DNA of 64,000 nt from Parabacteroides pacaensis (GTDB lineage: Bacteria > Bacteroidota > Bacteroidia > Bacteroidales > Tannerellaceae): NCBI RefSeq assembly GCF_900292045.1, contig NZ_OLMS01000003.1, forward strand, positions 189,570-253,569, read 5' to 3'. Under the pieces are notes generated by a model. The model made no database searches. It was not told where the DNA came from and was given only the letters and a program-made list of their open reading frames with translations. Positions 550 through 10,347 of the stretch are shown here, piece by piece; the stretch's first letter is position 1, and every line of letters starts with the position of its first letter. Both the position numbers and the translations under genes were made by a program.

Positions 550-1476
550 TTAATTCAAACGATAACTAACAAAAGCAATCTTTTTACTGTCTGGAGACCA
601 TGAGTTCACATTTAGGGTCCCCTGTCCGCCAAAAAGTTTAAGAAGCAAGCGTGATTCACCCCCGGAAGCAGGCATAAGGCGTAATTCGACATTTTTATTG
701 GCAAGATGCTGGCCGGGTTCCAAGTCGCCTTTGTAATAAGTAAGGAACACCACTTTTTCACCATCCGGCGAAATATGAGGGAACCAGGCATTCCGTTCCT
801 CGTCGAAAGTCATTTGAGTCTGTTCAGACCCGTCCGCCTGCATCCTCCAAATCTGCATAAGACCGCTACGAACAGAATTAAACCAGATATATTTACCGCA
901 AGGTGAATATTCGGGTCCATCATCCAGCCCTTCCGCATGGGTAAGCCGTACTTCTTCTCCGCCTACTGCGGGAATGACATAGATATCGTAATTTTTATTC
1001 CTTTCCGCGCAATAAGCCAATTGCGTTCCGTCCGGGCTCCATCCGTGCAAATAACTGGGAGCCATCGGAGTGATCAAACGTGGAGTTCCTCCTTCCATGG
1101 GGAGTGTATAAATACGTGATTTCCCATCTTCCTTAGTTCCGTGGCTTATCGCTATTTGCTTTCCATCCCTCGAGAGAACATGATCGTTATTACAATTTCC
1201 GGCAAAGCCTGTGGGGATCAGCAGAGGACTGCCGACCTTATGAGGTGAAATTTTATATAGTTTGCCTTTGCTGTTGTAAACAAGCCATTTCCCGTCTACC
1301 GTCCAGTTGGGAGCTTCTATCAGGTAGGGAAACTCTTTCACAATTTGCCGTTCACCTGTTTCTACATCCATTATTTCCAGTACACTGGTTACCGAAGTCT
1401 GTGGAATTTCTTTCATCGAACTACTTTCTTCCCCCGCAATAATAGCATGTAGTAATATAAAGAGATAAATAAGCAT
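550..1476 (-). CDS. TolB-like periplasmic beta-propeller (WD40-like/PD40 repeat) protein
   Basis: The ORF is 308 aa with an N-terminal signal peptide ([15 protein letters not shown]). It contains repeated PD40-like blades (SPDG.., YxxxxxGxxxIY motifs). Confidence 0.7.
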
Positions 1477-1848
1477 GGCATACGATTTTAAAGATGAATG
1501 ATAAAGTAAATATACAGAATTACTCTATTTTTTCTTACTATTCTACGAATAAAAATAATAAAATAACATCTGTTTGTTCAGAAGTAATTGACATAAGTGT
1601 ATATATGATCTTTTTACTAACTTGTAATAACTATTTGTTAAAGGATAAGCTATCCTAAGTTTACATGTAAAGGTCAAAGGATAGCTGTTTGTCATTTTTT
1701 ATTTGTATGCCCCATAGGTTATTTCTTTATATAAAATATATTCATATTATCTAGGTAACTTTTAAAACAAAAAACACCTAATGAAAATTGCTCCTGATAG
1801 TTTGGAAAGATTTTTTTCTTTCCGTCTAAGTTTACTAAGAATATGTGT

Positions 1849-2436
1849 TTATTGACTATTTGTAGATAATAAACTTTTTATATTCCGAAGATATTTTTCT
1901 GTTAAAAATGGAAATTGCTCATCGGGTATATAAATGTTTGATATTTTTCTATTAGGATATAAAACAAAAAAATAGGGAGTATTATACTCTTCTATAGGAA
2001 ATTCATCTTTATTAAATTTTATATTGAGAATAGGAAAACTTAATTTGTTCATTTTTTTGAAAGCGTACATATCTTTTTGAGAATAGTAAAAACTGAAGAT
2101 ATATATACAACTATCTTGCTCCTTAAAAATATCTTTTAAAAACTTTACATTCTTTTCAATGCATAAAGAGCAGTCAAGATGTGAATATCGATAAATTAGC
2201 ACAGGTTTATTTTTTACAATATCTCTATGCTTATCAGTTATTTCACGTGGAATTTCTAGCCCCGTGAATTTGTTGTTTAAATCAAAAAACTGTTTATAAA
2301 AATCTATACTGTCAGCCTGGTTAGACTGAACAGTAATGGGTGTGTAATTATTACTTTCCTCTTTTTGATTAATTAAATACAATAGTCCAGTAAAAAAGAC
2401 TACCAACAATAAAATTATGTTTTTAGTTTTCATCAA
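1849..2436 (-). CDS. Membrane-anchored thioredoxin-fold (TlpA/AhpC-TSA-like) thiol-disulfide oxidoreductase with an atypical CSLC motif
   Basis: There is an N-terminal hydrophobic anchor. The segment VLIYRYSHLDCSLC parallels the thioredoxin-like WCxxC context. The stop overlaps the upstream lipoprotein gene start, consistent with an operon. Confidence 0.5.
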   Translation of the reverse strand: MMKTKNIILLLVVFFTGLLYLINQKEESNNYTPITVQSNQADSIDFYKQFFDLNNKFTGLEIPREITDKHRDIVKNKPVLIYRYSHLDCSLCIEKNVKFLKDIFKEQDSCIYIFSFYYSQKDMYAFKKMNKLSFPILNIKFNKDEFPIEEYNTPYFFVLYPNRKISNIYIPDEQFPFLTEKYLRNIKSLLSTNSQ

Positions 2437-3517
2437 AGCTATTTTTTAATTTATATTCTAACAATATAATACTTTCATCTTGATATGGGTTCTGGTTTCC
2501 CATTTGAATAGGAATGTTTTTATAGTCTTTTATATCACTTCCATTACACCATCCTAGTAAAGTGTTATTTCCGTAAGGGGTAACATCAGAAAGTGCAGGA
2601 GTGAAACAAACATTCGTTCGATTAAATGGATTCTGTAAATTAGGTATGTTTGTAAAAATAAATATTCCTAAAGTATAAGAAAAAAGAAGTTGGTCACCAA
2701 CATAAAAAAAAGAATGGATCCGAGGCAATGGATATTGGAGACGCTTTTCTATAGGTAGCTCATAGTTATAGTGGGATTTATATAAGTCATAAGTATTTTC
2801 TTTATGATCGAAATCTAATGCTATATAAGGAAGACATTCATTCTGTTTTATAACATAAACACTATCGTTCCCTGGAGAATGGAAGAATAATTTATTATGT
2901 ACATTGTAAAACACGTATTGAGGAGGAAATAAATAATGTCCTTTTAGTTTGTGCCATGAGAAAAATGTTGAAAAATGTTCATTGAATAAATTTAGTTCTA
3001 CTAACGTTTCATTAGAATGATCGTATAATAATAAATTGTTGTCTTTGTAAACCAACCTTTTAAAAGCTTGATCTAATTGGATTTTTTTCTTTATTGTTTT
3101 CAACTCCCAGTCCACTATATACAAATTTCTAGGATAACTAAGAATTGCAACTTCCTTTTTTGTTTCATTTATATCAAAATCTAATAATTCGATATACTCG
3201 TCCGGACCATTCCCGATATGGCAAAATTTAGAAAGGGGGATGCCTGCTTCATCAAAACAAAATAAACTTTTGGTATGGGTATCATCTAAAATAAAGTATT
3301 CAGTCTTTGTTTTTTTTATTTTTCTGATTGTTCCTATTAGAAAGTCATCTGTTTCTTTTAATGGAATCATTTTAATTTCAGAAACAATCTGTTTTAAAGA
3401 CAATAAAGAATCTTCTAAATTAGAAATGAGCATACAATGGTTTACTGTGTTTTCAACTACAGGTTTGTTACATGAGAAAAAAATCATGAATAGAATTATA
3501 TATATATACTTTTTCAT
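2423..3517 (-). CDS. BF3164-family-like 6-bladed beta-propeller lipoprotein
   Basis: It has a lipoprotein signal with lipobox (MIFFSCNKP). Its blocks are paralogous to the lipoproteins at 7524-8687 and 8829-9995 (IPLETxDEF.., EYFI.D, YDLxGNF). The family assignment is from memory of Bacteroides paralog families. Confidence 0.55.
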   Translation of the reverse strand: MKKYIYIILFMIFFSCNKPVVENTVNHCMLISNLEDSLLSLKQIVSEIKMIPLKETDDFLIGTIRKIKKTKTEYFILDDTHTKSLFCFDEAGIPLSKFCHIGNGPDEYIELLDFDINETKKEVAILSYPRNLYIVDWELKTIKKKIQLDQAFKRLVYKDNNLLLYDHSNETLVELNLFNEHFSTFFSWHKLKGHYLFPPQYVFYNVHNKLFFHSPGNDSVYVIKQNECLPYIALDFDHKENTYDLYKSHYNYELPIEKRLQYPLPRIHSFFYVGDQLLFSYTLGIFIFTNIPNLQNPFNRTNVCFTPALSDVTPYGNNTLLGWCNGSDIKDYKNIPIQMGNQNPYQDESIILLEYKLKNSFDEN

Positions 3518-3591
3518 CTGATATTTGATTAATGATTTTGATAATGGGAATTAAAAATAACCATGGTTAAAAAACCATGGTTATACTTGTT

Positions 3592-4005
3592 TTATGTCAC
3601 TGTACTTGCATCAGTTCCTAAAATAATATCATGGCATGTTCTGTCTTGCCCACATCTTACTCTTTCACTAATATTATCCCCTTGGTAATATATTTGTGTT
3701 AGGTCTGATACATCGAGTTCTACATTCATCTTAAAACTAAAAACTGAATATCTATTTTGTAAAGTTTTTAGGTCACCCTCGGATGTAATCTTAATTTTAC
3801 AGCTTTCATGTTTTAAACCGCATTTAAACTCACTGTCATTTACACCTGTACCATTCCCACCACCACTATCAATACTTTGTGCTAAAACCTCAGTGCATAA
3901 TGGATTAGTTGTTATACCATAGTCTTTTAATGCATGATCCAAATTGAGAGTAAACAAAGTAAGGATAGCAATGATACTAGCTATTGTTGATATTGTATTA
4001 TTCAT
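3592..4005 (-). CDS. Small secreted Cys-containing protein, possibly NVEALA-like (motif variant CTEVLAQ)
   Basis: The ORF is 137 aa with an N-terminal hydrophobic segment and a TEVLAQ motif about 40 residues in. It has 5 Cys. It sits immediately upstream of the BF3164-like lipoprotein, as NVEALA proteins typically do. Confidence 0.35.
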   Translation of the reverse strand: MNNTISTIASIIAILTLFTLNLDHALKDYGITTNPLCTEVLAQSIDSGGGNGTGVNDSEFKCGLKHESCKIKITSEGDLKTLQNRYSVFSFKMNVELDVSDLTQIYYQGDNISERVRCGQDRTCHDIILGTDASTVT

Positions 4006-4129
4006 AAAATATGTTTTTGATTTAAATTGTTTATTTCTAACTTTGTATAAGCCAAATTATTATTTTAACTGCCCCTGTCGGGGCAATCGAAATTCATGTT
4101 GAATTAAGTTAAACATTGGTTTTTTCATC

Positions 4130-5428
4130 TCACTTGTTATAAATATTAGAAGTATAGTCATTACGATGTTGTAGTAATTCCTTTAGTTGATATTTCAGTG
4201 TATCAGAATTGTGCCATACTTTACAACGACTGTGTGTATATATATTCAAAGTAAAGACATATCCAATAGCTAAAAATATGATAAGTTTTCGACCGCTAAT
4301 TTTTAATGCCTTATATAAATAAATAATGCTATATGCAATTAGGAAAGCAATTCCTATTGAAGCTAAATATACATAACGATCGGCAATTATTGTATATCGT
4401 GATAGAGGAATAATATGTAATACTAGAATAATATGAAGAGAGAAAAAGAATATACTGAACAAAATTGCTTTTTCTTTTAGATTTTGTTGTAATAGGTAAA
4501 TTATTATTGTTATCAGTAAAGGGTATATTAATAACCATTTTGGTAAAGGAGTTCCTATGACTGCTGGGAAGGGATACAAATAAGACAATTTATAGGGAAT
4601 GATGCATTTAAATAAATATTCTGTGAAAGCATAACAAGCATATACTATTCTTTGCCAGAAAGGATAAGTAGACTCGTCTGTTAATACACCCTGTCCATCG
4701 GCTGATTGAGATAGCATAGTTATTACACCAAAGAATATAGACAAAAGAAAAAAAGGGATGAGTCTTATCCATATTTTTTTGTTTGTTAAATTATCATTCT
4801 TAAACCAATGAAGAAGTAATAACCACAGAGGGAATGTAACTGCTTGTTCTTTTCCTAGAAAAGAGCAAATAAATAAAACTAAAGTTATTATATAATACCT
4901 TATTTTTTTATATTGGAGGTATTTTAAGTATGCAATTGTTGCTAATAAGTAAAATAAAGTATATACTAATACTTTTGATGCACTCATCCAAGCAACTGAT
5001 TCTACATTAAATGGATGAATGGCAAATATTAATGCTGCTAACCATGCTATTAAACTAGGTGAGTGTGTATTTTCATGTAATTCTAATAATTTTTTTAATA
5101 TGTAATAAATTAAGCAGGTATTTACTATATGTAAAAGTAAACTGGCAAGATGAAAGATGGTAGAATCATATCCATTAATAGAATAAAGTACTAAATAAAG
5201 ATATTCATTAAGTGGGGCATATTGTCCATGGTAGTAGCTTGTTAGGATTTCCCATATATTATGCCAGTTGATGCCATTTCCTGTATAATGGTTCATGACC
5301 ACCCATTGATCATCCCATAAATATAAAAAATCATTATTTAATATAGGATAGTATGTTATAATACATGCTACTATAAGACTTAAAAGTAACAGTGTATTCA
5401 AGGTTGTGTCTTTTAATACTTTTGTCAT
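4130..5428 (-). CDS. Polytopic integral membrane protein (10 or more predicted TM helices), possibly a GT-C fold / GT39 or O-antigen-ligase-like enzyme
   Basis: The 432-aa protein is highly hydrophobic. It has an acidic first loop (NNDFLYLWDDQW). It is the first gene of a same-strand cluster that continues through 1849. Confidence 0.4.
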   Translation of the reverse strand: MTKVLKDTTLNTLLLLSLIVACIITYYPILNNDFLYLWDDQWVVMNHYTGNGINWHNIWEILTSYYHGQYAPLNEYLYLVLYSINGYDSTIFHLASLLLHIVNTCLIYYILKKLLELHENTHSPSLIAWLAALIFAIHPFNVESVAWMSASKVLVYTLFYLLATIAYLKYLQYKKIRYYIITLVLFICSFLGKEQAVTFPLWLLLLHWFKNDNLTNKKIWIRLIPFFLLSIFFGVITMLSQSADGQGVLTDESTYPFWQRIVYACYAFTEYLFKCIIPYKLSYLYPFPAVIGTPLPKWLLIYPLLITIIIYLLQQNLKEKAILFSIFFFSLHIILVLHIIPLSRYTIIADRYVYLASIGIAFLIAYSIIYLYKALKISGRKLIIFLAIGYVFTLNIYTHSRCKVWHNSDTLKYQLKELLQHRNDYTSNIYNK

Positions 5429-5835
5429 GGTATTATTTTTAAGTTGAACTTAGCCGGTTATAAGAAAAACAACTTTTTTTGTTTTTACCCTAGTGAAAAA
5501 TGAAACAAAACACGTTATTTAACTTTGTATAACATTTTAATTACCTTTTACTTTAGTAAGCCTGTGTAAAAGATGAATGTACATAAATATTGGAGGGCTT
5601 TCTTGGATATCTTCTTCTTTCATTTTCAAATCTTTCATGCGAGCTTCCGTAGATAGGGGTAAAACTTTATGTCAACATGAAGAAGGTGGAACAGGAAAGA
5701 GGCTTTATTCTGTCTTAAATAAGTTAACATTCGCTAGAGAGATATCTTTCTTTTTTTATCTTTGCATTGAGGTTTATTTGTTAAATGCTTAACTGTAAAA
5801 TGTCAAAATAAGAAAGTTTTATAAATTAAGAGCGT

Positions 5836-7125
5836 ATGAAAAAGTTGATAGGTATCATCATTTTTGCCATTGGGTTCTTGCCGGTGTATTCACAAAATGC
5901 GGATTTAAGAGTGAGTGATTTATTAAATAAAGCAGACTGGTTTGCTTTAGAAGAAGAATATCCGGTGTTAAAAGATTCGATACAAACTCCTGCTTTAAAG
6001 CTTATGGCGGAAATCATGCTTAGTAATGCTTTTAACCGGCCCGAACAAGCACTTACCCGTATCAATTTAATGCTCAAAGAATATCAGCAGGAGATAGGGT
6101 TCGATAATGCTTGCAACCTTGTTTTCTTAGCTTCTATCATCGATGGAACGCAAGGAAACTATGCAAGAGCGTTAGGTACGATGAATAGCTTTTTAACTCA
6201 ATTGGATTCGTTAGGCGTGAAAGATAATTTGGAATCTTATATGCATTTTTATAATGATTATAATTCGTTTCGTGAATATCCGGCTCCTGTTCTTTTACGT
6301 CCGGATAAAGACATAGAGATCCCTATTTCTATAGAAAAAGCCGGACGCGGGACACTCATATATGTTCCTGTGATGGTGCATAATGAAACGTACAAATTTA
6401 TTTTTGATACAGGGGCAGCCACCACCTTTCTATCTGAAAAGTTTGCGAATAAGATGGGCGTGAAAGTGGTAAGTGATTCTACATGGATCAATAAAGGAAG
6501 TATAGGGGAAGGGGTTGGTAAAAGCGGTTATTTGGATAGTATGCAAATCGGAGATATAACCTTTAAGAATATAAGAGTAGCTATTGCCAGACCAAACGAA
6601 CAAGTGGATAGTGTTTTTCAGGCGGATGCTATTCTGGGAGTGGATTTTATGAAGCTAGTAAAAGAGATCCGGCTTTATCCGCAGGAGAAGAAAATGTTAT
6701 TACCTTCCCGAACTACTCCTTTGCCTGCTACGGGAAGAAATGTACTTTTGACGAATGGGAACCGGCTGATTTTAAAAGCGTATTCCGGCGGGGAACGTTT
6801 GCAACTTGTTTTTGATACGGGAAATGTGAGTGCGGATTTGTTCCATACTTACTATGACAGGCATAAAGAAGAGATCGATAAGATTGCCCGGAAGGATACT
6901 ATATTCGGAGGCGGTTTTGGCTTTGTCCGTTCGGTTGAGGTTTTGCGCCTACCGTTTGTACCCCTGAAAATAGGGAATACTTCTTTTGAAATGAAAAATA
7001 TGCCTGTTCAACCGGTGGCAGATAGTAGTCAGACAGAAGAAGACGGCAGTGTAGGTATGGATATGGTAAAGCTATTTTCCAAAATTACCTTGAATTTCGA
7101 CGATATGTTTATCGACTTAAAATGA
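5836..7125 (+). CDS. Secreted pepsin/retropepsin-like aspartyl protease with two DTG active-site motifs
   Basis: It has a signal peptide (MKKLIGIIIFAIGFLPVYSQ). Two aspartic protease signatures are present, FIFDTGAATTFL and LVFDTGNVSADL. Confidence 0.6.
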   Translation: MKKLIGIIIFAIGFLPVYSQNADLRVSDLLNKADWFALEEEYPVLKDSIQTPALKLMAEIMLSNAFNRPEQALTRINLMLKEYQQEIGFDNACNLVFLASIIDGTQGNYARALGTMNSFLTQLDSLGVKDNLESYMHFYNDYNSFREYPAPVLLRPDKDIEIPISIEKAGRGTLIYVPVMVHNETYKFIFDTGAATTFLSEKFANKMGVKVVSDSTWINKGSIGEGVGKSGYLDSMQIGDITFKNIRVAIARPNEQVDSVFQADAILGVDFMKLVKEIRLYPQEKKMLLPSRTTPLPATGRNVLLTNGNRLILKAYSGGERLQLVFDTGNVSADLFHTYYDRHKEEIDKIARKDTIFGGGFGFVRSVEVLRLPFVPLKIGNTSFEMKNMPVQPVADSSQTEEDGSVGMDMVKLFSKITLNFDDMFIDLK

Positions 7126-7523: not shown

Positions 7524-8687
7524 TTACTTCTTAGGTTTTACCAACATAATCACCGAATTAGAATCCTCCTCCAATGTCGCGGCTATTTCTTTTAGTTTGC
7601 CTTTCAGCTTCCCATTTTCATAGTCCTTGCGAAGACTGAAAGCATTTATAGAAGACCATAATTCGCCTTTTCGATTTATAGGAGTGAGGGAAACCATATA
7701 GATTTCTTTCTTATAAGAATAATCACCGTTGTATATGATATACCTAAAAAAATCCTTTTCCTGTGTATCGTACACAAAGTACGTTTTCGGAAACCCTTCT
7801 TCTTTAGTAAAATCATATACATTCTTTATGCTTTCCATAAAATAGTAACGATCGGAAACCAACTTTAAAATCAAGTAAATTTCCGGATTCATGGTGTGGA
7901 TAGGTGGTGTTCGTGCAATAAACGGGCGTAAACTGTAATCCGGCATTAAAGTGTAGATAGTATCTGACGAGGGTTCTAATAGTATCCAATTACCCTTAAA
8001 TGGAGTTATTCTACTATAATCTCCTGGTCCGGCAGCTCTTATTCCCCCTTCGTGTTTTAAAAGTTGAATAAATATCTTCTTCTCCTTAAATGGGGTTTTA
8101 ATCTCTTTGGTTATGCTCCCGTCTTGCTTCGATACGAGCAGGAATGGTATCTCTTGATTACATTCATCGTAACAAATCAGATTCTCTTTATCATAATTAA
8201 ATATTTCCCAATAAAACTGGGTATCACCACCCTGCTTCTGTTTAAAACTTCGTTTAAAATTTCCCTCCAAATCATAAATCTTTATTTTTTTTGCAAAGTG
8301 GTCGTTTATAAACATTTCATTGTTTTCTTCATCCAATGTAACACTTCTACAAGATATGTATTCTTCCCCCCCTTGCCCTTTACGATTTATCTTACGGATG
8401 GCTTTTCCGGTCCGGTCATACACAAAAATATCACCGTCATTCTTATAGTTTGTTACTATTATGAATTCTTTGCCTACAGCCTGCACAAATCCTTGATTGA
8501 TAAACTCATCATTTGTTTCCAGCGGAATGTATTCCACATCCATAAAATCTTGAAGAATCACCTCCTTTTTGTTCGAAGGAGTGTTTGTAATGTCCACAGT
8601 AAGAAAAGCATCTTCTGATTGTTTGTTGTCACCGCATCCTGCCGTTATTAACAGGATAAGAGCTAAAATTGTACCAGTGCATTTCAT
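7524..8687 (-). CDS. BF3164-family-like beta-propeller lipoprotein (paralog 2)
   Basis: It has a lipobox (LLITAGCGDN). The first ~80 aa are nearly identical to the adjacent paralog. It is homologous to 2423-3517. Confidence 0.6.
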   Translation of the reverse strand: MKCTGTILALILLITAGCGDNKQSEDAFLTVDITNTPSNKKEVILQDFMDVEYIPLETNDEFINQGFVQAVGKEFIIVTNYKNDGDIFVYDRTGKAIRKINRKGQGGEEYISCRSVTLDEENNEMFINDHFAKKIKIYDLEGNFKRSFKQKQGGDTQFYWEIFNYDKENLICYDECNQEIPFLLVSKQDGSITKEIKTPFKEKKIFIQLLKHEGGIRAAGPGDYSRITPFKGNWILLEPSSDTIYTLMPDYSLRPFIARTPPIHTMNPEIYLILKLVSDRYYFMESIKNVYDFTKEEGFPKTYFVYDTQEKDFFRYIIYNGDYSYKKEIYMVSLTPINRKGELWSSINAFSLRKDYENGKLKGKLKEIAATLEEDSNSVIMLVKPKK

Positions 8688-8828
8688 ATTTAATTATTTA
8701 GAACCGTTACAAGGATATCTGTTTATTTGTTATTTAAATGCTATGAATAAATTTACTTCCCCTGGGGTAGTAAATCCTATTAACGAATCTACTTCCCACA
8801 GGTAGTAATTTTGCTTTGCGTATTCCAT

Positions 8829-9995
8829 CTATTTCTTATGCTTCACCAACATAATAACCGAATTGGATTCTTCATTCAAAGTCGCTGCAATCTCTTTGAG
8901 TTTTCCTTGCAGCCATCCTTTCTCATAAGCCGTAACAAGCTGGTAAGCCTCTAGAAGTTCCCATGAGTCGACATCGTGATCTACAGGCCTTAACTGATTC
9001 ATGTATACTTCTTTTTTGATTGAATAGTCGCCATTGTATACCGTATATGTAAAAAAGGCCTTCTCTTGCCTGTCATACATAAAGTACTCCCTCGGAAAAC
9101 CTGTATTGTTATCAAAGTCCCATACATTTTTTGCAGTCTCCATGAAATAGTAACGGTCGCAAGGCAACCTCAAGAACATAAAAACTTCCGGGTTCATGGA
9201 TTGTATGGATGGGCTTCTCACCATAAAAGGTCGCAAGCTGTAATCCGGTAACAAGGAATAGATGGTATCCGATGAAAGTTCTAGTAACATCCAGTTGCCT
9301 TTGAACGGAATTATGGTACGATAAGGGCCGGGAGAGATGGATAGCGTACTATTTTCACCGGTTTGCTTCGTTATCGTAGCTTGTTTTTTCTCTTTATATG
9401 GAATCTTAATATCTTGGGTAATACTTCCATCCTGTTTGGATATGAGAACAAAAGGTATTTCTTTATTGTATTTGTCATAGCAAATCAGATGATCATTATC
9501 ATAATTGAATATATCCGTATAAAATAGAGATCCGTTCCCTTCTTTGTGCCTAAGAGTTCTTTTGAAATTTCCATCCAAATCATAGACCTGGATCTTTCTT
9601 ATATAATGGTCATTAACATACATTTCCTTGTTACTTTCATCCAAGGTTATTCCTAATATATTGGTATATTCTTCAGCACCTTGTCCCTTTCGGTTAATTT
9701 TCCGTAAAGCTTTTCCCGTTCTATTGTAAACAAAAATGTCCCCATCGGAGTTTCGATTTCTTACTAATATGAATTCTTTGCCTATAGCCTGCACAAAGCC
9801 TTGGTTAATAAACTCATCATTCGTTTCCAGTGGAATATATTCCACATCCATAAAGTCTTGAAGAATCAGCTCCTTTTTGTTCGAAGGAGTGTTTGTAACG
9901 TCCACAGTAAGGAAAGCATCTTCTGATTGTTTGTTGTCACCGCATCCTGCCGTTATCAACAGGATAATTGCTAAAATTGTGTTTGTGCCTTTCAT
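8829..9995 (-). CDS. BF3164-family-like beta-propeller lipoprotein (paralog 3)
   Basis: The tracked ORF runs 8829-10055. The likely start is the ATG at 9995 (MKGTNTILAIILLITAGCG), which restores the signal peptide and lipobox and matches the N-terminus of its neighbour. Confidence 0.6.
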   Translation of the reverse strand: MKGTNTILAIILLITAGCGDNKQSEDAFLTVDVTNTPSNKKELILQDFMDVEYIPLETNDEFINQGFVQAIGKEFILVRNRNSDGDIFVYNRTGKALRKINRKGQGAEEYTNILGITLDESNKEMYVNDHYIRKIQVYDLDGNFKRTLRHKEGNGSLFYTDIFNYDNDHLICYDKYNKEIPFVLISKQDGSITQDIKIPYKEKKQATITKQTGENSTLSISPGPYRTIIPFKGNWMLLELSSDTIYSLLPDYSLRPFMVRSPSIQSMNPEVFMFLRLPCDRYYFMETAKNVWDFDNNTGFPREYFMYDRQEKAFFTYTVYNGDYSIKKEVYMNQLRPVDHDVDSWELLEAYQLVTAYEKGWLQGKLKEIAATLNEESNSVIMLVKHKK

Positions 9996-10168: not shown

Positions 10169-10172
10169 GCAG

Positions 10173-10246
10173 CTCTTCCTCTTGGACTTGAACCAAGGAC
10201 CCTCTGATTAACAGTCAGATGCTCTAACCGACTGAGCTAAGGAAGA
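10173..10246 (-). tRNA. tRNA-Asn (anticodon GTT)
   Basis: The reverse complement folds as a cloverleaf: acceptor TCTTCCT/AGGAAGA, D-arm GCTCAGTCGGTTAGAGC, anticodon loop CTGTTAA (GTT), T-arm GGTCC..TTCAAGT..GGACC, discriminator G. No CCA is encoded. Confidence 0.9.
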
Positions 10247-10273
10247 ATAGAATAATGATTTCCGCAAATTTCG

Positions 10274-10347
10274 CTCTTCCTCTTGGACTTGAACCAAGGA
10301 CCCTCTGATTAACAGTCAGATGCTCTAACCAACTGAGCTAAGGAAGA
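10274..10347 (-). tRNA. tRNA-Asn (anticodon GTT), tandem second copy
   Basis: It is identical to the first copy apart from one D-loop substitution (AGTTGG instead of AGTCGG). Confidence 0.9.

Follow-up and report, generated by a model that had tools for sequence, protein, structure and literature searches.

We analysed four adjacent genes in a window of 64,000 nucleotides (nt) of Parabacteroides pacaensis (GCF_900292045.1, contig NZ_OLMS01000003.1, positions 189,570–253,569 of the forward strand). Sequence comparison identifies the four as the minimal form of a previously undescribed cassette that is conserved in gut Bacteroidales. All four lie on the minus strand, and they encode a GT-C membrane protein (5428–4130, 432 amino acids, aa), a small exported protein (4005–3592, 137 aa), a DUF5128 beta-propeller lipoprotein (3517–2423, 364 aa) and a CxxC protein with the motif CSLC (2436–1849, 195 aa; 194 aa from the ATG at 2433 in the NCBI annotation). 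The open reading frames (ORFs) are intact in the window, and the propeller and CSLC genes overlap by 14 nt, or by 11 nt when counted from the ATG at 2433; the co-directional arrangement, the overlap and the coordinates of an initial annotation of this DNA were thus reproduced. We propose that the cassette makes, matures and partners the small exported protein, which would most likely be a strain-variable polymorphic effector with the propeller serving for immunity or binding, a proposal that we judge about evenly poised between right and wrong.

Recurrence of the cassette in other loci

The sample is biased, in that every comparison locus came from a search started with one of two cassette components: six metagenomic loci (L012–L017) were entered through the GT-C protein, and the others by way of small-protein relatives. 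In the six GT-C-entered loci (GT-C identity of 46–65%), a GT-C gene was followed by a small gene with the EVLAQS leader and then by a DUF5128 gene in every case. In three of these (L012, L014 and L015), the next gene encodes a CxxC protein and overlaps the propeller gene as in the window, and the CxxC proteins, two of which are in L015, matched that of the window with E values of 4e-18, 6e-13, 1e-26 and 1e-22. A CxxC protein similar to that of the window was usually next where the contig was long enough. The four-gene arrangement, the conservation of which had been raised in the initial annotation, therefore recurs in its first three genes in all six loci and with the CxxC gene in three, but none of the closest relatives of the window strain has the whole set. 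Next to one body type of the small protein (L013, 10319–10702; L014, 8509–8886), a DUF1573 lipoprotein of 125–127 aa with the motif TPC(G/A)C occupies the place of the CxxC gene.

The loci entered through the small protein showed the same components in varied order. The order was small gene, DUF5128, TolB_like, CxxC protein (CSSC) and MauE in L004, where the MauE homologue (PF07291, E 6.9e-17) adjoins the CxxC protein; small gene, DUF5128 and CSSC protein in L007; and small gene (same leader, unrelated body), DUF5128, CNTC protein, GT-C and GtrA in L008. In L005, a DUF5128 gene, a CxxC protein (CGSC), a Wzy_C/TPR protein and an S26 peptidase precede three successive pairs of small gene and DUF5128 gene, and L009–L011 have the order DUF5128, S26, Wzy_C, CSLC protein, small gene and DUF5128. 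In L006, a small gene with 56% identity to that of the window stands ahead of another propeller type. The fuller clusters of the GT-C type carry, downstream, a second GT-C protein (Alg9-like GT22, E 3e-37), GtrA and a signal peptidase I (TIGR02227, 128 bits). The sister clusters of the NVEALA type carry S26 and a Wzy_C/TPR protein, a family which includes protein O-oligosaccharyltransferases. Because the order recurs elsewhere with extra genes, the window holds the minimal four-gene core of a larger conserved cassette.

The pairing of small gene and propeller gene was the most regular feature of these loci. In accordance with the initial annotation, in which small proteins of this kind were placed beside propeller lipoproteins, the small gene was directly upstream of a DUF5128 gene in 15 of the 15 cases with a visible downstream region, and the gap was 7–14 nt in several clusters. 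Across the 15 pairs, the similarity of the bodies and that of the adjacent propellers were correlated (Spearman rho 0.64; Mantel p 2e-4, 0 of 5000 permutations). The propellers behind the window-type four-Cys body are mutual closest relatives, with the EVLAQS and the NVEALA leader alike, and two propellers that share a contig but follow different bodies are nearly unrelated. Since neighbouring genes are co-inherited, this co-variation establishes the cassette as a unit and does not establish binding.

The small exported protein

The 137-aa protein has an N-terminal hydrophobic segment, a leader that closes in EVLA↓QS (residues 39–44; the arrow marks the close of the leader), a linker rich in G, S, T and N (44–57) and a body (58–137). 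Its five Cys residues, like the string TEVLAQ at 38–43, are as initially annotated; Cys37 lies in the leader, and Cys62, Cys69, Cys118 and Cys124 lie in the body. A word-indexed homologue search returned only the protein itself, and its status as an orphan was then overturned by an exhaustive HMMER search, which gave 53 matches. Three of these (P0010–P0012), which are long repetitive proteins, were discarded as spurious, and the rest fell into two classes.

Class 1 comprises 39 cluster representatives with a common N-terminal region of about 42 residues, for which the consensus is MKNxKLTxLG…LNxRHALNDYGxxxNKLHVEVLA↓QS, the seventh-last position being variable (LHxEVLAQS). The leader closes at about residue 42, and Q directly follows VLA in 37 of the 39 proteins. 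Behind it, the linker is 44–96% G/S/T/N, and the bodies, of 23–150 residues, are mutually unrelated, with an even number of Cys residues in 27/39 and a mode of four. Class 2 comprises eleven proteins in which the window-type body stands behind a genuine NVEALA motif; the body pattern is …EFKC…C(K)F…VDLTDxTQIY…VRCGxDVTC(N)D, and its four Cys residues are invariant. The small protein of the window can thus be described as a natural chimera, because it joins the leader of class 1 to the body of class 2. In the leader of the window copy, Cys37 (codon 3895–3897) stands in place of the near-invariant His of its relatives (…NKLH-x-EVLAQS).

The closest homologue, that of L006, gave a ratio of non-synonymous to synonymous substitution rates (dN/dS) of 0.23, which corresponds to purifying selection, and on this basis the small gene is a real gene. 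Lack of conservation, which would have spoken against the initial annotation, was thus not seen, given about 50 relatives and this ratio. The same annotation had read TEVLAQ as a degenerate NVEALA-like motif, and this holds in substance but not formally. The Pfam family NVEALA (PF14055) matched nine of the 14 proteins in the alignment of the window-type body (best E 2e-9), and MAFFT placed the TEVLAQ of the window on the NVEALA column block, with A42 conserved in at least 90% and an ambiguous register of EVLA versus EALA. Neither the window protein, even at E 0.1, nor any of the 20 EVLAQS-leader proteins examined was matched by PF14055. An NCBIfam search with the small-protein family gave nothing, and PDB sequence and profile searches with the body gave nothing significant. 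A cargo signal of the type IX secretion system was considered and rejected, as the small protein gave no Por_Secre_tail match.

The DUF5128 propeller lipoproteins

The 364-aa protein matched PF17170 (90.2 bits, E 1.8e-25; cut-off 22.9 bits), and the two tandem orphan genes on the minus strand at 7524–8687 and 8829–9995 matched the same family (E 3.8e-29 and 6.7e-30; 102 and 105 bits). The match to PF17170 and the lipobox support the initial reading of a propeller lipoprotein with two paralogues at 7524–9995, but the label 'BF3164-like' was not verified. In an alignment of 25 propellers, the only invariant positions were the initiator Met, the lipobox Cys (Cys16 in the window propeller), L53, G92, G102 and E107, the last two of which sit in a GxGPxEY motif; the mean pairwise identity was about 15–30%.

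The nearest solved structure is 4RAA (BF0058, uncharacterized), with a sequence E of 3e-6, a Foldseek E of 3e-8 and a template modelling score of 0.45. Beyond 4RAA, Foldseek gave generic WD40/BamB scaffolds with scores of 0.3–0.45; a bacterial glutaminyl cyclase (3MBR) was also matched. The model used has a mean predicted local distance difference test score (pLDDT) of 58 and is confident only for residues of about 60–280, and the description 'six-bladed' is the label of the Pfam family. NCBIfam gave no family at E 0.1 for the 364-aa protein and none at E 0.01 for five other cluster propellers; the L008 propeller gave just sub-threshold NHL-type NCBIfam matches, and no output listed a BF3164 model. 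Nowhere in the window was a second ORF of the small-protein family found, so that the window holds three propellers and one small gene. Orphan propellers were also seen as runs in L013 and L015, and both members of the window pair are conserved in the relative L001.

The GT-C glycosyltransferase

The only Pfam match of the 432-aa protein was PMT_2, with 23.4 bits (E 7.5e-5) below the cut-off of 26.1 bits. The GT-C orthologue of L008 (49% identity, E 1.5e-121) likewise gave a sub-threshold PMT_2 match (22.7 bits, E 1.3e-4). The protein has a DD motif (D39 D40) just past the first transmembrane segment, xHxxYxP at 66–72 with partial likeness to SHKSYRP, KEQAVT at 193–198 as an exact fit to KE(Q)xxT, and DRxxY at 350–354 (D350, R351 and Y354). 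These four motifs are in the correct order with similar spacing, and they are invariant between the window and L008 proteins. In TMTC, ArnT and PMT enzymes, such motifs form the donor and metal site (PMC7801869, Eisenhaber et al., Table 4). The TMTC motifs M3 (RxD), M5 (DW) and M6 (PxxP) were not found by eye in the alignment of the window and L008 proteins, and a TPR or other soluble domain is absent, the protein terminating at residue 432. For these reasons the protein is TMTC/ArnT-like yet no TMTC, and, by its motifs, we classify it as a TPR-less GT-C glycosyltransferase. The initial annotation had recorded a membrane protein here, and such a protein is indeed present, but its GT-C identity, visible in the sub-threshold PMT_2 match and the motifs, had been missed. 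PDB sequence and profile searches with this protein gave nothing significant. Among the components of the cassette, it is the one most tightly tied to the EVLAQS leader type.

The CxxC protein

The CSLC motif occupies residues 89–92, where a helix begins straight behind a predicted beta-strand. A word-indexed search with this protein also returned only itself, and its reading as an orphan was overturned by locus-based searches: the CxxC proteins that recur in the clusters are about 190–215 aa long and N-terminally anchored. Across eight positional homologues, C89 and C92 are the only invariant columns, so that homologues without CxxC were not seen, and a candidate cis-Pro, P154 (NTPYFFVL), is conserved in six. 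The single-sequence AlphaFold2 model is unreliable (pLDDT 46), and just its order of secondary structure was used: strand 79–83, helix 89–106, strand 111–117, helix 120–128, strands 136–140 and 154–159 and helix 180–192, which is the beta-alpha-beta-alpha-beta-beta-alpha order of the thioredoxin fold.

Sequence matches pointed in the same direction. Pfam AhpC-TSA scored 13.2 bits on the window protein, below its cut-off of 26 (E 0.09), and the best values for members of the family were Redoxin at E 8e-4 and AhpC-TSA at E 0.0027. With the family profile, the best non-membrane matches in the PDB were a thioredoxin, a redoxin-domain protein and a peroxiredoxin (E 0.12–1), with CxxC aligned; PDB sequence and profile searches with the CSLC family gave nothing significant. 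With hhalign, the CxxC was in register with the CGPC of the TlpA-like protein (WCGPC) beside the L015 cluster (P 0.067). A heavy-metal-associated (HMA) fold (E 0.08, with a poorer alignment) was rejected, as the order of strands and helices and the better alignment favour the thioredoxin-like matches. Taken together, the motif, the predicted secondary structure and these matches suggest that the CSLC protein, which is N-terminally anchored, probably has a thioredoxin fold of the TlpA/Redoxin type. The thioredoxin-like oxidoreductase of the initial annotation is therefore upheld as to its motif and as a recurring CxxC family, while its fold depends on weak matches. At the cassette edge of L015, a canonical TlpA-like protein (WCGPC; 8–997) occurs besides the two divergent CxxC proteins inside.

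Strain variability

We compared the window with three metagenomic contigs (L001–L003) in which the flanks, consisting of an aspartic-protease-like gene and a PD40/TolB-like gene, are 92–93% identical. Between these flanks, the relatives have just two DUF5128 genes, and the small and CxxC genes are absent. One of the two is the orthologue of the window propeller (83% nt identity), and in all three independent assemblies the same frameshift splits it into 76 aa and 227 aa (L001, 10001–11266; L002, 3649–4733; L003, 834–1918), and from its sequence it looks like a decaying partner gene. Of the GT-C gene, only the first ~100 nt remain (L002, 2261–2369, against window 5428–5320), with a stop past about 17 codons. 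Given this remnant, the segment of GT-C and small gene was lost or replaced in the relatives and not gained in the window strain. The cassette is thus strain-variable, the closest relatives being without the GT-C, small and thioredoxin-like genes. Synonymous sites (dS) have diverged three times as much in the propeller (0.84) as in the flank (0.28). The region 1500–5800 has a GC content of 24–31%, and its flanks have 43–47%.

Transcription

Two hairpins on the minus strand flank the small gene. The first, which is GC-rich, lies between the GT-C gene and the small gene (4062–4093; −16.9 kcal/mol, z −4.96), and L006 has an equivalent upstream of its small gene with a different loop. The second, which is terminator-like with a 12-bp stem followed by TTTTT, lies directly past the stop of the small gene (3557–3584; −16 kcal/mol, z −4.2), and L006 has a hairpin of different sequence in the same place (z −6.0). 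Because of these hairpins, a single four-gene transcript is not assured; the operon proposed initially agrees with the co-directional genes, but is weakened by the hairpins around the small gene. The four genes may form two or three transcription units or, alternatively, partial termination may raise the expression of the small gene over that of its neighbours. Matches to sigma-70 promoters were fewer than in shuffled sequences, a consensus that is inapplicable to Bacteroidales.

Proposed mechanism and alternative explanations

We propose the following course of events. The 137-aa precursor would be exported through Sec by its N-terminal hydrophobic segment, and a type I signal peptidase would then remove the leader of ~42 residues by a cut at EVLA↓QS; this peptidase would be the housekeeping enzyme in this strain and the cassette's own S26 in fuller cassettes. 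The Q-rule of Bacteroidetes places Gln at +1 of the signal peptidase site (PMC5837995; PMC10653852), and EVLA↓QS fits it, as its +1 residue is Gln and those at −3 and −1 are small. In the periplasm, the membrane-anchored CSLC protein would form or isomerize the two disulfides of the four-Cys body, as its conserved CxxC and its linkage suggest. The GT-C protein would move a sugar from a polyprenyl-phosphate donor to the small protein, most plausibly O-linked on Ser/Thr of the linker; glycosylation of the linker is proposed because GT-C tracks the type of leader and linker whatever the body, accompanied by GtrA and a second GT-C protein. Finally, the mature mini-protein may bind its own DUF5128 propeller, to which its gene is linked. 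A bacteriocin-like effector with a propeller for immunity or binding is favoured on account of the conserved leader and hypervariable bodies, the one propeller per body together with orphans, the presence or absence between strains, the low GC content and the deep divergence. The end function is the weakest part of the proposal, and a bacteriocin or signalling role is conjecture.

Several observations count against this proposal. Every biochemical step in it is deduced from gene linkage and motifs, the loci were sampled by searches with two of its own components, and co-inheritance of neighbours contributes to the co-variation of body and propeller and could suffice for it. Neither a toxin domain nor an ABC (ATP-binding cassette) or C39 exporter nor a lysis gene was found, and nothing indicates antibacterial activity. 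The 64-kb window has no S26, GtrA or GT22 gene, and its small gene and propeller gene have a strong hairpin between them. As to the small protein, the leader of the window copy is atypical in its sequence, its n-region being without the Lys found in relatives and without Arg, and the candidate cleavage site is ~20 residues past the hydrophobic segment, unusually far for signal peptidase I. To these are added the sub-threshold PMT_2 score and the unrecognized M3, M5 and M6 motifs of the GT-C protein, and the unreliable model and sub-threshold AhpC-TSA match of the CSLC protein.

The pairing of small protein and propeller could also reflect a two-subunit envelope complex on the pattern of methylamine dehydrogenase, a stable heterodimer with the small disulfide-bonded protein as the light and the propeller as the heavy subunit, which would be binding, sensing or enzymatic, on the cell surface or in the periplasm, and not antagonistic. 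The strict pairing of one small gene with one propeller and their co-variation agree with this, as do the narrow gap of 7–14 nt in several clusters, the thioredoxin-like CxxC protein as a conserved companion and the true MauE homologue next to it in L004. However, the window itself is without MauE, many propellers are orphans, and the relatives retain propellers after loss of the small gene. Unrelated bodies behind one leader are hard to fit with a single conserved complex; moreover, the body is without a conserved Trp pair or a cofactor-type set of residues, and the propellers are lipoproteins, six-bladed by their family label, with one conserved motif only. We therefore regard such a complex as unlikely, although it is the most probable of the alternatives. 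The conserved leader with hypervariable bodies is, in addition, a hallmark of leader-guided peptide maturation, and the propeller might then be a body-specific modifying enzyme (a cyclase, lyase or peptidase), with the GT-C and CxxC proteins as further tailoring enzymes in the manner of peptide natural products. The invariant Glu of GxGPxEY in the 25 propellers, a weak NHL-repeat similarity to ScyF and the glutaminyl cyclase among the Foldseek matches, together with the Gln at the predicted mature N-terminus, are consistent with such an enzyme. On the other hand, the few invariant positions (L53, G92, G102 and E107 besides the lipobox Cys) and the low identity better suit a binder, one enzyme per substrate is contrary to leader-guided promiscuity, the structural matches beyond 4RAA are generic scaffolds found with a partly low-confidence model, and the orphan propellers have no substrates. 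A modifying enzyme is accordingly considered improbable, more so than a two-subunit complex.

Least probable, in our estimation, is that the four genes are unrelated neighbours in a decaying island, in which GT-C would serve a surface polysaccharide or lipopolysaccharide, CxxC would serve redox housekeeping of the envelope, and the small ORF would be lineage-specific without a linked function. The low GC content, the two adjoining tRNA-Asn genes, the deletions between close relatives, the hairpins that flank the small gene and the absence of the accessory genes of fuller clusters would all be expected from such an island. But the same order was found in the six independent GT-C-entered loci, and in permuted form in L008; the four ORFs are intact, with the small gene under purifying selection, and the overlap of the propeller and CxxC genes is conserved.

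Comparison with known systems

The closest known counterparts are loci with NVEALA (PF14055) and DUF5128/TolB_like genes. They share with the cassette a hydrophobic N-terminus, a short motif ~40 residues in and a Cys-containing, homologous body, as well as a DUF5128 lipoprotein gene next to the small gene and a CxxC protein nearby. By contrast, the leader of the window type is distinct and much more conserved (LNxRHALNDYGxxxNKLHxEVLAQS) and is followed by the G/S/T/N-rich linker, and it travels with GT-C and GtrA, whereas the NVEALA type travels with Wzy_C/TPR. NVEALA and DUF5128 are catalogued by Pfam without function, and the families of the EVLAQS leader, the CxxC protein and the TPR-less GT-C protein are without a Pfam or NCBIfam model. 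In full-text searches (NVEALA, DUF5128, BF3164 and the Pfam accessions), no paper discussing the former families was found, and full-text searches likewise gave no paper on the latter three.

Loci for glycocins of the sublancin type consist of the precursor gene sunA, the glycosyltransferase SunS and the thiol-disulfide oxidoreductases BdbA/BdbB; in glycocins the glycosyltransferase is a GT2 enzyme of the cytoplasm, the leader is of the double-glycine type and export is by an ABC/C39 system. Such loci and the cassette alike encode, next to a small secreted protein with disulfide bonds (predicted ones in the cassette), a glycosyltransferase and a dedicated thioredoxin-like oxidoreductase, and both are strain-variable. 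The cassette differs in having a Sec-type N-terminus, a periplasm-facing GT-C protein that would act with a lipid-linked sugar, a probable S26 step and a propeller partner. No ABC/C39 gene was found beside the cassette genes in the window island or in L004–L017, and the cassette does not match the double-glycine-leader class.

In the mau cluster of methylamine dehydrogenase, MauB is the propeller heavy subunit, MauA the small Cys-rich light subunit, MauD a thioredoxin-like protein and MauE a membrane protein. The cassette resembles it in the propeller, the small disulfide-rich protein and the membrane-anchored CxxC factor, and L004 has the MauE homologue. It is, however, without the Trp pair that forms tryptophan tryptophylquinone and without similarity to MauA or MauB, and its bodies are hypervariable and its orphan propellers common. 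With TMTC1-4, PMT and ArnT (PMC7801869), the GT-C protein shares DD in the first extracytoplasmic loop, KE(Q)xxT, (D/E)RxxY and the partial SHKSYRP-like motif, but it has only 432 aa, no TPR, unrecognized M3, M5 and M6 and no sequence match to a solved structure.

In its boldest form, the proposal describes a new class of polymorphic mini-proteins that leave through Sec behind a long conserved leader and mature wholly in the periplasm by a dedicated S26 leader peptidase, a thioredoxin-like oxidase and GT-C fed by a GtrA-flipped lipid-linked sugar, with a propeller that neutralizes or carries each variant. This would be the first GT-C tailoring of a bacteriocin-like product and a new effector–immunity system in the competition of gut strains, and we put it forward tentatively, as less likely than the core proposal. 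NVEALA and DUF5128 are large families in human-gut Bacteroidales, and the locus ties them to a coherent set of genes, so that their function becomes testable. Should the small protein prove to be an effector that carries glycan and disulfide bonds and is countered by its propeller, strain competition in the gut would gain a new mechanism and the periplasmic tailoring of secreted peptides a new route, and the hypervariable bodies that follow a single leader would provide a ready-made library of stable small proteins. Two-subunit complexes, if these are what the proteins form instead, would account for a paralogous expansion of lipoproteins that is among the commonest in Bacteroides genomes.

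Neighbouring genes

None of the four proteins matched the anti-phage models of PADLOC, and neither NCBIfam nor Rfam matched anything within the four-gene cluster. Rfam gave just two tRNAs outside it: two tandem tRNA-Asn (GTT) genes on the minus strand (10172–10246 and 10273–10347), immediately upstream of the two orphan DUF5128 genes. The stretch from these tRNA genes to ~1500, which contains the low-GC island as well as the DUF5128 genes, may be a variable region associated with the tRNAs. Within it, the aspartic-protease-like gene (5836–7125, plus strand), which encodes a secreted protein of 429 aa having a retropepsin-like aspartic protease domain of clan AA (Asp_protease_2, E 3.9e-16), separates the orphan propellers from the cassette; this gene has 93% nt identity in the relatives without the cassette. 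The PD40/TolB-like beta-propeller gene (550–1476, minus strand, 308 aa) is the conserved downstream flank of the island, and its product has no sequence kinship with DUF5128.

Finally, two clusters of the NVEALA type, L004 (4875–6833) and L005 (7930–9789), each encode a protein of 620–650 aa with a C-terminal F5/8 type C (discoidin) domain, and the two matched each other with E 2e-49. By eye, this protein has a Cys/His/Asp motif like that of transglutaminases or cysteine proteases, and, judging from these sequence features, it could be a further processing component.

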